Below, one piece after another: positions 60,488 to 63,596 of a stretch of 64,000 bases of DNA. A model generated the notes under the pieces. That model saw nothing but the letters and a program-made list of their open reading frames with translations, was not told where the DNA came from and ran no database searches. Origin of the DNA: Vicinamibacterales bacterium. GTDB lineage: Bacteria > Acidobacteriota > Vicinamibacteria > Vicinamibacterales > CAVVIG01. A program made the position numbers and the translations under genes. The stretch spans positions 8,064 to 72,063 of the forward strand of contig JBAUGX010000118.1 of the NCBI GenBank assembly GCA_049679965.1, read 5' to 3'. How positions within the stretch are numbered: the stretch's first letter is position 1; each line of letters starts with the position of its first letter.

Positions 60488-60502
60488 GCATGCTCTGTGC
60501 CA
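60488..60502 (-). promoter_or_regulatory. candidate sigma54 promoter TGGCAC-N5-ATGC for the usp-acd-usp operon
   Basis: The reverse complement reads TGGCACAGAGCATGC, about 34 nt upstream of the ATG at 60454. A GCTCCA-GCGCT-TGGAGC palindrome (60575-60591) is centred about 82 bp upstream. Confidence 0.55.
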
Positions 60503-60600
60503 CAGTGGATTTTTACCCGATTGCGTGAAATTCCCCAAACTGTTCGGATTCCCGCCGCCTGCGGTAAGCTCACTGCTCCAGCGCTTGGAGCTCTCCCCAC

Positions 60601-61677
60601 GTGTCAGACGCTTCGCACCACACGCCTGAAGGTCACTCGGCTCGCATTCTGGCGGCCATCGTGGAATCCGCCGTCGATGGCATCGTTCTCATCGATGCTC
60701 ACGGCCGGATTGAAGCGTTCAATCCCTCAGCTGAGCGGCTGTTCGGGTATGCGGCCGCAGAAGTGATGGGTCGGAACGTCAGCATGCTGATGCCGTCCCC
60801 GTTCCGCGAGGAACACGACAGGTACATGGAGCGTTACCTGACGACCGGCGTGAAGAAGATCATCGGCATCGGCCGCTCGGTGTCCGGCCGCCGCAAGGAC
60901 GGCACGACCTTTCCCATCCATTTGTCGGTTGGCGAAATGACCATTGGCGGCGAGCGCAAGTTCTCCGGGATCATTCACGACTTGACGTCCCGCGTGCAGC
61001 TGGAAGGGCAGCTTCGCGAGCAGGCGGCACTTGTCACTCTCGGAGAAATGGCGGCCGTTCTCGCCCACGAGGTCAAGAACCCCCTGGCCGCCATTCGGGG
61101 GGCGATTCAGGTAATCGCCGGACGCCTGCCGTCGGAGAGTCGAGATGCGAGCGTGATGACGGAAGTCATCCGGCGCATCGATGGATTGAACGACCTGATG
61201 AAGGACCTGCTCCTGTTCGCACGGCCGCCTCAGCCCAGACCGGTGCCGATCGACGTCGTATCCTTGCTCAAGACAACCGCCGAATTGCTCAACAAGGACG
61301 CCGAGTTCAAGGAATTGGGCGTGGGGATTTCTGGTGCTGTCCCGCCCGTCCTGGCCGACGCCAGTCTGTTGGGCGTCGTGTTCGAGAATCTTCTGCTGAA
61401 CAGCGCCCAGGCGATGCGAGGCAAGGGCGTGATCGGGGTTTCGGTTGCCTCGAGTGGAAATCACTGCGAAATCGTCATCACAGACTCTGGTCCGGGGATT
61501 CCTCCAGAGGTAAGGGAGAAGATTTTCGCGCCGTTCTTCACCACGAAGTCAAAAGGCACCGGTCTCGGCCTGCCGACGACAAAGCGATTCGTTGAGGCGC
61601 ACGGCGGGACCATCGCGGTCGACTGTCCGGTTGGCGGCGGAACCACGATTACGGTCAGGCTCCCGCTCCGAACCTAA
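60601..61677 (+). CDS. FixL-like heme-PAS sensor histidine kinase (soluble)
   Basis: The PAS segment [55 protein letters not shown] closely parallels, from memory, the FixL heme pocket, including the proximal His and the GIGR Arg. H-box LAHEVKNPL. ATPase motifs DSGPGIP and GTGLGL. Confidence 0.8.
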   Translation: [358 protein letters not shown]

Positions 61678-61805
61678 ACAGCACCTGAGCTTGGCGCGAC
61701 TCTTGAAACGCCGCGAGCACGTGCGTGGAGACCTCGTTGATCGCCAATTCGCCAGTTGAAAGAACCGGAGGAGCCGAGCCGGAAGGCGCGCCGAATAATT
61801 CCCAT

Positions 61806-62198
61806 ATGGCGAAAAAACCCCCGTCCCTGCGGGTGCTCGTCGTTGACGACGAGCCGCTGATTCGCTGGTCCCTGTCCGAGACACTCTCGGGCTCCGGTCA
61901 TTTCGTCATCGAAGCATCCGATGGTGAAGCAGCCGTGCGCGTCCTTTCCGACGGCCAAGAACCCGTGGACGTCGTCGTGCTCGACTATCGTCTGCCGGAT
62001 TCGAACGACCTGACCTTGCTGGCGACGCTTCGGCGGCTGGCGCCCCTGGCACAGGTCATCATGATGACCGCCTTCGGCACAGCGGACGTCGTCAGCGGGG
62101 CGCTCAGTCTGGGCGCCTATCGCGTCGTGCCAAAGCCGTTTGAAATGCACGACATGGCCGCGCTCGTCCTCCAAGCCCACGCCGCCCGCCCGCACTAG
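61806..62198 (+). CDS. single-domain response regulator (CheY-like)
   Basis: VLVVDDEPLIRWSL ... VVVLDYRLPDSN ... MMTAF ... VVPKPF has all the canonical residues. It is a close paralogue of the receiver domain of the next gene. I prefer the ATG at 61806. Confidence 0.85.
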   Translation: MAKKPPSLRVLVVDDEPLIRWSLSETLSGSGHFVIEASDGEAAVRVLSDGQEPVDVVVLDYRLPDSNDLTLLATLRRLAPLAQVIMMTAFGTADVVSGALSLGAYRVVPKPFEMHDMAALVLQAHAARPH

Positions 62199-62228
62199 AC
62201 TTCAGATTTCCTGCATATACTAGCGTTC

Positions 62229-63596
62229 ATGCCCGCACCGACAGTTCTGGTCGTGGACGACGAACAGCTGATTCGCTGGTCGTTGACGACGCGTCTCTCC
62301 GATGAAGGTTACCGCGTCCTCGAGGCCGAGACGGCCGCCGCCGCTCTCGATCGGGTGCGGGAGGGTGTCGACCTCGTTCTGCTCGACTACCGGTTACCCG
62401 ATGGGGACGGCCTGGCGGTCCTCAAGAAGATCAAGGAACGCGACCCCGACACGCTCGTCATCCTGTTGACGGCGCAGGTGAGCGTGGAGCTCGCCGTCGA
62501 GGCGATGAAACAGGGCGCGTATCACTACGCGAACAAGCCCTTCAACGTCGACGAAATCGTCCTGCTCGTCGAGAAGGCGCTCGAAACGACTCGGCTGCGT
62601 CGCGAAGTGCGAACACTGCGGGCCACCCAGGCCCAGCCCTACACACTCGACCGCATTGTCGGCGACAGTGCCGCGATGGTCGCCATCAGGGCGCTTCTGC
62701 AGAAGGTGGCGGCAAGCCCCGCATCAACCGTGCTGCTGACTGGAGAGAGCGGTACCGGCAAGGATCTGGCCGCCAAGGTCATCCACTACGCAAGCGATCG
62801 TGCGAACAGACCCTTCATGAACATCACCTGCTCGGCCTTGCCCGAGCAGTTGATCGAGAGCGAGCTGTTCGGGCACGAGCGCGGTTCGTTCACCGGCGCG
62901 GATCGCCAGAAGCGGGGCTTGCTCGAATCGGCCGATGGCGGCACGGTGTTCCTGGACGAAATCGGCGAGATGCAACCGGGACTGCAGGCCAAGGTGCTGC
63001 GTTTTCTCGAGGACAAGGCCTTCAAGCGTGTCGGCGCGTCGGCGGACATCAAGGTCGACGTGCGCGTCATTGCCGCCACCAACCGCAAGCTCGAAGACGA
63101 GGTCCGCCAGGGGAAGTTTCGAGAGGACCTCTACTATCGGTTGAACGTCCTGCCCATAGCACTGCCCCCGCTGCGGGCCAGGGCTGGCGATTTGCCGCTG
63201 CTCGTCAACTACTACATCGACATCTTCAATCGCGAGTTCAAGAAGCGCGTGCGGGGCATCGCGCCGGACGCGATGGCTCGCCTTCAGACCTATGCGTGGC
63301 CCGGCAATGTCCGGGAGCTCCGCAACGCCATCGAGCGGGCGATGTTGCTGACTGAAGAGCCGGTGCTCGGTATCGATCAGTTCCCGCTCGGCGGGGGCCT
63401 GGGCAGAGTCACCGATGGCTTCGAGTTGCCCAATGGCGGCGTCGATCTCGAGCAATTGGAGCGCTCCCTCGTCGTCCAGGCGCTCGAGCGAAGCGCGTGG
63501 AACCAGACCAAGGCCGCCACGCTTCTGGGCCTCAATCGCGATCAGATCCGGTATCGCGTCGAGAAGTTCAAGCTCGAGCGGCCAGCCCAGGCCTGA
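62229..63596 (+). CDS. sigma54-dependent response regulator (NtrC family)
   Basis: [14 protein letters not shown] ... [38 protein letters not shown], and C-terminal [20 protein letters not shown]. Confidence 0.95.

Follow-up and report, generated by a model that had tools for sequence, protein, structure and literature searches.

A FixL-type heme-PAS kinase encoded with a single-domain receiver and an NtrC-type sigma-54 activator in Vicinamibacterales: a predicted gas-sensing two-component system

Introduction

FixL, the oxygen sensor of Bradyrhizobium japonicum and Sinorhizobium meliloti, usually partners the LuxR-type regulator FixJ, and two arginines in its heme pocket couple oxygen binding to the switch. 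Here, we describe a locus in which a FixL-type PAS domain is found in other company. It lies in a 64,000-nucleotide stretch of DNA (the window) from a Vicinamibacterales bacterium (assembly GCA_049679965.1, contig JBAUGX010000118.1, positions 8,064 to 72,063), and encodes a soluble histidine kinase, a stand-alone receiver and an NtrC-type sigma-54 activator. We consider that the locus probably (at roughly 65%) encodes a cytoplasmic heme-based gas-sensing two-component system consisting of a FixL-type PAS, a ZraS/AtoS-like kinase, a sigma-54 activator and a small receiver that damps the response. Vicinamibacteria are common in soil, and to our knowledge nothing is known about oxygen sensing in this class.

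Other described systems resemble parts of this locus. The NmpRSTU system of Myxococcus xanthus is described as a soluble heme-based oxygen-sensing kinase with a receiver-only protein, NmpT, proposed to be a phosphosink, and the NtrC-like regulator NmpR, acting on low-oxygen genes (PMC11841059). In Brucella and Paracoccus, the PAS kinase NtrY is reported to bind heme and has the NtrC-family regulator NtrX as its partner (PMC9409073). Caulobacter crescentus FixT is characterised as a single-domain receiver which feeds back on a FixL-type kinase, does so unphosphorylated and depends on a four-cysteine iron-sulphur motif (PMC7078487). Our literature searches found no paper joining 'heme-PAS' with 'enhancer-binding protein', and the titles and abstract openings returned for FixL and oxygen in Acidobacteria, and for two-component systems and oxygen in Vicinamibacter, contained nothing on this module.

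Results

A FixL-type PAS domain in a soluble kinase

Three co-oriented genes, for a kinase, a lone receiver and a sigma-54 activator, span 60601-63596 (Table 1). An earlier interpretation of the same letters (the sequence-only reading) had let the locus begin at 60488, which is intergenic; the open reading frame (ORF) of the kinase begins at 60601. It had also remarked that the PAS region of the kinase parallels the heme pocket of FixL, and this was borne out, as the quoted PAS stretch is present and aligns without gaps, with the His and Arg matched. Residues 17-140 of the kinase matched the B. japonicum FixL heme domain in phmmer searches (1dp6, E 8.8e-38; 8js5, E 4.7e-38; no gaps) and the S. 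meliloti FixL domain 1d06 (E 4e-35), while the heme-PAS domains of DosP were far weaker matches among solved structures (E about 1e-13). Identity to the solved heme domain was approximately 57% when judged by eye on the alignment, and 48-53% over 115-131 columns in Foldseek.

The pocket residues follow the same correspondence. His72 (codon 60814-60816), in an HDxY context, pairs with the His of RSRHDSY in FixL, Arg92 (of GIGR) with the residue replaced by Ala in the R220A entry 1y28, and Arg78 (of ERY) with the position mutated to Ala in 2cmn. When R220 is equated with R92 the offset is 128, which makes His72 the equivalent of His200, and Arg78 that of R206, in B. japonicum FixL; we take His72 to be the counterpart of the axial heme ligand His200, and the pocket roles of these residues are presumably those of FixL. 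In an alignment of the window kinase with 33 homologues (34 in total), E71, H72, Y75, G89, G91 and R92 show no variation and R78 almost none, and the His together with the IG.GR motif is kept in 11/11 PAS matches of relatives. Many of the homologues in public data carry the automatic name 'sensor kinase FixL'. A sister PAS subfamily found in relatives has a His at the position of FixL R206 (HDGYIxHH).

Modelling of the structure gave a concordant picture. In the AlphaFold model of the kinase (mean pLDDT 78.7) the PAS domain superposes on FixL heme domains, with a TM-score by target of 0.88 against both 1lt0 (53% identity, root-mean-square deviation 1.9 Å) and 1y28, the deviation for the two entries ranging from 1.9 to 2.2 Å. 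By all the sequence tests applied, the domain is a true FixL-type heme-PAS, and heme binding is predicted.

The kinase had been said to have no transmembrane segment, which agrees with its domain composition: PAS (aa 17-127), HisKA (147-209) and HATPase_c (253-357). Since these soluble domains fill residues 17-357 and only 16 residues precede the PAS, a membrane anchor is not likely; the hydropathy peak (Kyte-Doolittle 19-residue mean of 1.68, at residue 13) falls within the PAS N-cap.

The window kinase has one FixL-like heme-PAS (60601-61023), whereas the kinases of its closest relatives (L001:1681-3114, L002:6001-7458 and L006:1692-3085) have two in tandem, both with the His and the Arg. 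Compared with L002, residues 11-64 of the window kinase are nearer to the first PAS (46/54 identical positions against 34/54) and residues 65-145 nearer to the second (71/81 against 58/81), a mosaic that would be consistent with unequal crossing-over having removed one repeat unit. A single-PAS kinase of 359 aa also occurs elsewhere (P0117).

The transmitter belongs with ZraS and AtoS

From the DLT hinge on (residues 128-356), the best solved match was ZraS (9jfj, E 3e-41), and the best NCBIfam models for the kinase were AtoS, at the top, and ZraS. The FixL equivalog model NF041777 scored 228.7 bits, far under its cut-off of 850, and covered aa 17-180 only; the other equivalog scores at the locus also fell under their cut-offs (AtoS 253 against 646, ZraS 177 against 479, AtoC 453 against 714). 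The catalytic motifs are an H-box HEVKNPL containing His156, DSGPG, FAPF and GTGLGL. No NtrY entry was present among the best 60 of 86 solved-structure matches to the kinase. On these comparisons the transmitter is ZraS/AtoS-like and not FixL-like, with the PAS joined to it at a conserved DLT hinge.

The same DHp-CA core is also found in more remote acidobacterial relatives (L007-L009), there with an unrelated PAS that lacks the His. An activator 70% identical to that of the window is encoded near the kinase in L008, only the first 65 residues of one are present in L007, and none was found in L009. Because the same core occurs with another PAS, and in L008 with the activator nearby, the heme-PAS appears to be mounted on a pre-existing chassis: the kinase is best described as an NtrB/ZraS-type chassis, already tied to an NtrC-type partner, onto which a heme-PAS was swapped, and not as a re-partnered FixL.

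The same genome (G000) holds a further version of the sensor. At the end of contig C196 (3-3472), where the N-terminus is lost, a multi-PAS kinase (L083) has a PAS that is 56% identical, followed by HisKA_3-HATPase, and its neighbour is a regulator with a receiver (REC) and a GerE domain (LuxR-type), so that the two form a FixLJ-like pair. Linker length was tried as a guide to polarity by comparison with FixL chimeras, but the rows contradicted each other (7 residues off for 4gcz, none for 8a7f) and the comparison was dropped.

An NtrC-type activator and a conserved sigma-54 promoter

The activator has the architecture of NtrC-type enhancer-binding proteins, i.e., a receiver, a sigma-54 AAA+ domain with a GAFTGA-type loop and a Fis-type helix-turn-helix. 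Pfam assigns Response_reg (PF00072), Sigma54_activat (PF00158, E 7.4e-68), AAA_lid_14 (PF25601) and HTH_8 (PF02954), and the protein has a Walker A motif GESGTGK at 172 and a GSFTGA loop at 219. That the kinase is coupled genomically to an activator of this type, and not to one of the FixJ type, had been put forward in the sequence-only reading; its neighbours, the presence of rpoN (on contig C105) and a conserved -24/-12 promoter all agree with this.

This promoter, TGGCACAGAGCATGCT, is one mismatch from the sigma-54 consensus and precedes a divergently transcribed gene for a universal stress protein (USP), whose true ATG lies behind a GGAGGG ribosome-binding site. Five near-consensus sigma-54 sites (at most one mismatch) occur in the window against 1.5 expected, a number reached by 0/100 shuffles. 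The element is conserved 5' of the USP gene in the form TGGCAC-N5-WTGC, with equivalent sites in L001 (TGGCACAGAGCGTGCT) and L002 (TGGCACGGAGTGTGCT) and a further one in L003, and a -24/-12 motif lies just 5' of the USP gene in 6/20 further regions. L001 (about 1160-1490) and L002 (about 5560-5890) have a small ORF on the minus strand between the promoter and the USP gene, which is absent from the window. It is conserved adjacency only that assigns the USP promoter to this activator, as its putative target. A genome-wide -24/-12 scan with a downstream-gene filter returned 21 candidates, which are not attributable to this activator.

The intergenic region between the USP and kinase genes contains A/T-core boxes, which are candidate activator sites, and a TAAGCT hexamer resembling a -10 element for the kinase gene; some A/T-core boxes fall inside the first codons of the receiver gene. 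A scan of 60300-64000 with the sigma-70 consensus returned 0 sites.

Two related receivers with a common docking helix

ORFs and Pfam agree with the earlier description of two receivers 3' of the kinase, one stand-alone and one heading the NtrC-type activator, and the motifs quoted for them (VLVVDDEPLIRWSL and VLDYRLPD, and a 22-aa stretch of the activator receiver) are present. They had been called nearly a copy of each other, which overstates the case: they are 42% identical over 119 residues, and the likeness is centred on alpha1 and the loop after the phosphorylated Asp. Among the 56 receiver domains of the genome, the closest relative of the small receiver is that of the activator (40.2%, the next best being 34.1%), while for the activator receiver that of another activator comes first (46%) and the small one fifth. 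In a quick tree of the 56 domains the two came out as sisters, weakly supported (SH-aLRT 81). Orthologues of the small receiver occur across the order, 65-81% identical in relatives, so by these comparisons it is an old, separately conserved paralogue and not a recent duplicate.

The main kinase-docking and specificity surface of a receiver is alpha1. Here, a search of 25,595 six-frame ORFs and the 56 receiver domains found IRWSL in alpha1 (LIRWSL in its longer form) and LDYRLPD in no protein but these two, and both motifs are retained in both orthologue sets. As the docking motif is common to the two receivers and unique to them, it is a reasonable inference that they share one cognate kinase.

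E17, D61, T89 and K111 are the same in all 22 sequences of the small receiver that were aligned, and D16 is nearly invariant; the phosphorylatable Asp lies in VLDYRLPD. The protein contains 0 Cys, and its orthologues have at most scattered Cys. With its pocket intact and no Cys, it looks like a phospho-accepting protein and not a pseudo-receiver or a FixT-type protein. Its C-terminal half and tail are distinct.

When two copies of kinase residues 128-358 were modelled together with the small receiver, the complex scored 0.61, a value reached by 116/157 solved complexes and 2/215 mismatched pairs; the highest of 3 controls was 0.00. Runs agreed in at least 96% of contacts, with a partner pLDDT of at least 84, and receiver residues 17-27 and 111-115 were placed on the DHp helix around His156. 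This pass may come from likeness to solved kinase-receiver complexes and not from binding by the pair itself. In some relatives the small receiver is doubled, with tandem small receivers before the activator or two kinase/receiver sets per locus (L124:6001-6795 in G106, which carries two small receivers, and L127 in G061).

A second element before the receiver-activator pair

Upstream of the receiver gene lies a second -24/-12-like element, TGGCGCGACTCTTGAA, which varies little or not at all among three genomes, in contrast to its diverging flanks. Elements resembling TGGCGCGAYTCTTGAW lie 101-166 nt 5' of the receiver start in 15/21 loci; in 11 of these 15 the pattern TGGC.C-N5-TTGA[AT] is retained, with a single-base departure in L118, and the matches in the other four are looser (L116, L119, L128 and L130). 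A further locus, L129, has a canonical GGGCAC-N5-TTGC at -96 of the receiver. The element is also present where a divergent USP gene replaces the kinase as upstream neighbour.

A multi-copy binding site for the activator was considered for 61692-61707 and rejected, as there is one exact copy in the genome, with 13 sites at two mismatches against 5 for a reversed-pattern control. Since the exact copy is single, a gene-specific promoter is the better reading. The element is a candidate -24/-12 promoter with an atypical -12, through which the receiver-activator pair is probably auto-induced.

Conservation across the class

Synteny was compared in 20 regions from 17 other genomes of the class (G094, which also had a match, was left out). 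A separate small receiver is present in 17/20 regions and an orthologue of the activator in 14, with both in 11; all three genes occur in 6, a USP gene in 11 and the acetyl-CoA synthetase in 3. In L001 and L002 the kinase, receiver and activator keep the same order, and the partners are 81-92% identical. Across the 201 genomes of the class, the receiver was found at E ≤ 1e-25 in 19, G000 included, and in 14 of these 19 it lies in a short open frame. Despite rearrangements, families of the order repeatedly combine the receiver-activator pair with a kinase of the same DHp core and with USP genes behind a sigma-54 promoter motif. The module is real, conserved and coherent, and it is widespread in Vicinamibacterales.

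Features of the locus and the rest of the window

Table 1 Features of the kinase-receiver-activator locus and its divergent neighbours (positions in the window)
Feature	Position	Strand	Basis or remark
Soluble PAS-HisKA-HATPase_c sensor histidine kinase, 358 aa	60601..61677	+	ORF, Pfam and alignments
Single-domain receiver, 130 aa from ATG (alternative GTG start 61725)	61806..62198	+	ORF and Pfam
NtrC-type sigma-54 activator, 455 aa	62229..63596	+	REC (Asp53), AAA+, Fis-type HTH_8
Universal stress protein, 167 aa from ATG at 60454, first in divergent unit	59951..60454	-	
ADP-forming acetyl-CoA synthetase-type protein (CoA_binding_2, Succ_CoA_lig, ATP-grasp_5), directly 3' of USP gene	57784..59973	-	
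Tandem USP, two Usp domains, 3' of acetyl-CoA synthetase gene	56840..57790	-	
-24/-12 (sigma-54 type) promoter TGGCACAGAGCATGCT	60487..60502	-	32 nt 5' of USP ATG
-24/-12-like element TGGCGCGACTCTTGAA, candidate sigma-54 promoter for receiver-activator pair	61692..61707	+	114 nt 5' of receiver ATG
USP/kinase shared control region; block kept in L001 (GTGAAATTCCCCAA..TTCGGATTCC..CTGCGGTAAGCT)	60503..60600		suggestive only

The three PF00158 matches in or just past the window lie at 8716-9219, 14768-15265 and 62655-63158. Beyond the activator gene, a hairpin with a T-run (about 63680-63705) is followed on the plus strand by a near-consensus sigma-54 promoter, TGGCACATGGGTTGCC (63717-63732), 47 nt 5' of a NifU-like gene, directly after which comes another sigma-54 activator, apparently without a receiver (G000:C118:72117-72614, past the window end). 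L001 and L002 lack this arrangement. Elsewhere on the plus strand, 42842-47833 encodes a Rieske protein, a cytochrome b-cytochrome c fusion, a multiheme cytochrome with paired CXXCH motifs and an MtrB/PioB-type outer-membrane porin; the cluster looks like an extracellular electron-transfer module, which is unusual in descriptions of acidobacteria. Another near-consensus -24/-12 site, TGGCACATCGCTTGCC (52170-52185, plus strand), lies at the start of an MgtC/DUF4010 ORF, the true start of which may be 44 nt downstream.

Discussion

The locus would work as follows. His72 of the PAS presumably serves as the ligand of heme b, in a pocket that includes Arg78 and Arg92. When oxygen, the likely ligand, leaves the heme, the kinase would autophosphorylate on His156; that low oxygen is the kinase-on state is suggested by analogy with FixL and by the kind of genes targeted. 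The phosphoryl group would then pass to Asp53 of the activator and to the single-domain receiver, both of which present the same docking helix. Once phosphorylated, the activator is expected to oligomerise and use ATP to open the sigma-54 holoenzyme at 60502-60487, inducing the USPs and the ADP-forming acetyl-CoA synthetase, an enzyme whose substrate-level phosphorylation would supply ATP under limited respiration. By also opening the -24/-12-like promoter of its own operon, the activator could induce itself, and the co-induced small receiver may drain phosphoryl groups or compete at the kinase, which would damp and reset the response. Such a sink or competitor role for the small receiver is plausible. 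A bolder version, which we regard as rather unlikely, gives Vicinamibacterales a hypoxic persistence programme like that of DosR but assembled from other components, with this locus as its master switch. A heme sensor (present twice in many relatives, where it might respond cooperatively) would feed an activator that is auto-induced, along with its dedicated phospho-accepting receiver, from the unusual promoter with TTGA at -12. Positive feedback through the activator with negative feedback through the receiver would give USP genes and genes of substrate-level ATP formation an oxygen threshold that is sharp and resets itself.

Several observations weigh against a heme-based gas-sensing system built in this way. 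A heme-PAS kinase was found within ±6 kb of the receiver, the distance at which its presence was judged, in only 8/20 regions, and in 7/20 the kinase core carries another sensor. The genome (3.97 Mb) has some 27 strong sigma-54 activator (PF00158) matches, and with so many activators another one could serve the USP promoter. In L003, the start of the USP gene relative to the promoter is ambiguous, and the element upstream of the receiver has TTGA at -12 in place of the canonical TTGC. A/T-core boxes (GGAAWWTYCC-like) recur among 13 promoter-upstream regions that were compared, but this enrichment, assessed by eye and by 6-mers, is relative to a mostly coding background that is not a fair control, and the search for enhancers gave no site with statistical support. 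The many activators, the kinase's variable adjacency to the pair in relatives and the outcome of the enhancer search would suit a locus in which the kinase merely sits beside the two receivers and is not their partner, or in which the USP promoter is driven by a different activator. We consider this distinctly improbable, given the recurrence of the pair, the kinase core and the promoter-preceded USP genes across families, and a docking-helix motif that no other receiver in the genome shares. On the sensor side, the differing transmitter means that FixL gives no guide to the sign of the response, and two pocket positions are changed from those of B. japonicum FixL (Lys86 for His and Val110 for Ile, which we take to be H214 and I238 in FixL numbering). 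Together with the matches to DosP heme-PAS domains of the same fold, these changes leave some room for a domain that senses nitric oxide, carbon monoxide or the redox state of the heme iron, and thus for a nitrosative or redox stress switch instead of a hypoxia switch. Brucella NtrY offers a precedent, as it is described as a heme-binding redox sensor with iron that is quickly oxidised in oxygen (PMC9409073). This reading is improbable, however, since the closest solved relatives by far are FixL oxygen-sensor domains (E 1e-37 against 1e-13 for DosP), both pocket arginines are conserved throughout the family, and the neighbouring targets suit oxygen limitation.

It would be more surprising still if the PAS had lost its heme and bound another ligand or none, a reading that we hold to be very improbable. 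Sequence alone does not reveal a cofactor, and the His is missing from another PAS of this genome, 39% identical, on contig C109; set against this are the identity to a solved heme domain and the complete or near-complete retention of the axial His and pocket Arg among the 34 aligned homologues. The role of the small receiver is where an alternative carries the most weight. Possible, though somewhat doubtful, is that it acts not as a sink but as a direct kinase inhibitor or allosteric modulator in the manner of FixT, or has a separate output through protein contacts. Caulobacter FixT is reported to inhibit FixL autophosphorylation without competing with FixJ, and its own phosphorylation was never observed (PMC7078487). 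An orthologue group of its own with a distinct C-terminal half and tail suggests more than passive competition, and some relatives carry two such receivers. The small receiver of the window, however, lacks the four-Cys motif of FixT, all of its phosphorylation residues are kept in 22/22 sequences, its docking helix is common to the activator, and it was modelled over His156 in a phosphotransfer pose, although the model may reflect likeness to solved complexes. We retain the damping, phospho-accepting receiver as part of the proposed gas-sensing system.

Vicinamibacteria face fast changes in oxygen, and the locus offers a concrete circuit of sensor, two receivers, promoter and targets. As a simple natural pathway that branches from one kinase to two receivers, with probable autoregulation, it would be useful for the study of phosphate sinks, and it could be a source of oxygen-responsive sigma-54 parts. 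It also indicates that the FixL heme domain is a module that travels from one kinase chassis to another, with a HisKA_3 version and its LuxR-type partner present in this genome.

Compared with known systems, the locus shares the sensor domain of FixL-FixJ, here as a single PAS directly before the DHp, but differs in its ZraS/AtoS-like transmitter. Where FixJ combines a receiver with a LuxR/GerE domain, the proteins here are a receiver-only protein and a REC-AAA+-HTH_8 protein, and in place of the FixK cascade direct sigma-54 activation is predicted. ZraS-ZraR and AtoS-AtoC have the same kinase core and activator architecture (AtoC is the top NCBIfam match to the activator, E 1.4e-135), but the ZraS and AtoS sensors are periplasmic or membrane proteins, whereas the sensor here is a cytoplasmic heme-PAS. 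NtrY-NtrX has a PAS of unrelated lineage and no companion single receiver, and NtrY is a membrane protein. FixT is likewise a single-domain receiver beside a FixL-type sensor; the motif cysteines of FixT are absent here, and the phospho-acceptor residues are intact. The closest functional precedent, with NtrYX also named, is NmpRSTU, which shares the heme kinase, the receiver-only protein and the NtrC-like activator. In that system the sensor is a protoglobin where ours is a PAS, NmpT has two receiver domains where ours has one, and an additional hybrid kinase, NmpS, inverts the signal, so that the path predicted here is shorter and more direct. The locus is thus a new combination of known parts: a domain-shuffled heme sensor, a branched two-receiver pathway and a sigma-54 output.

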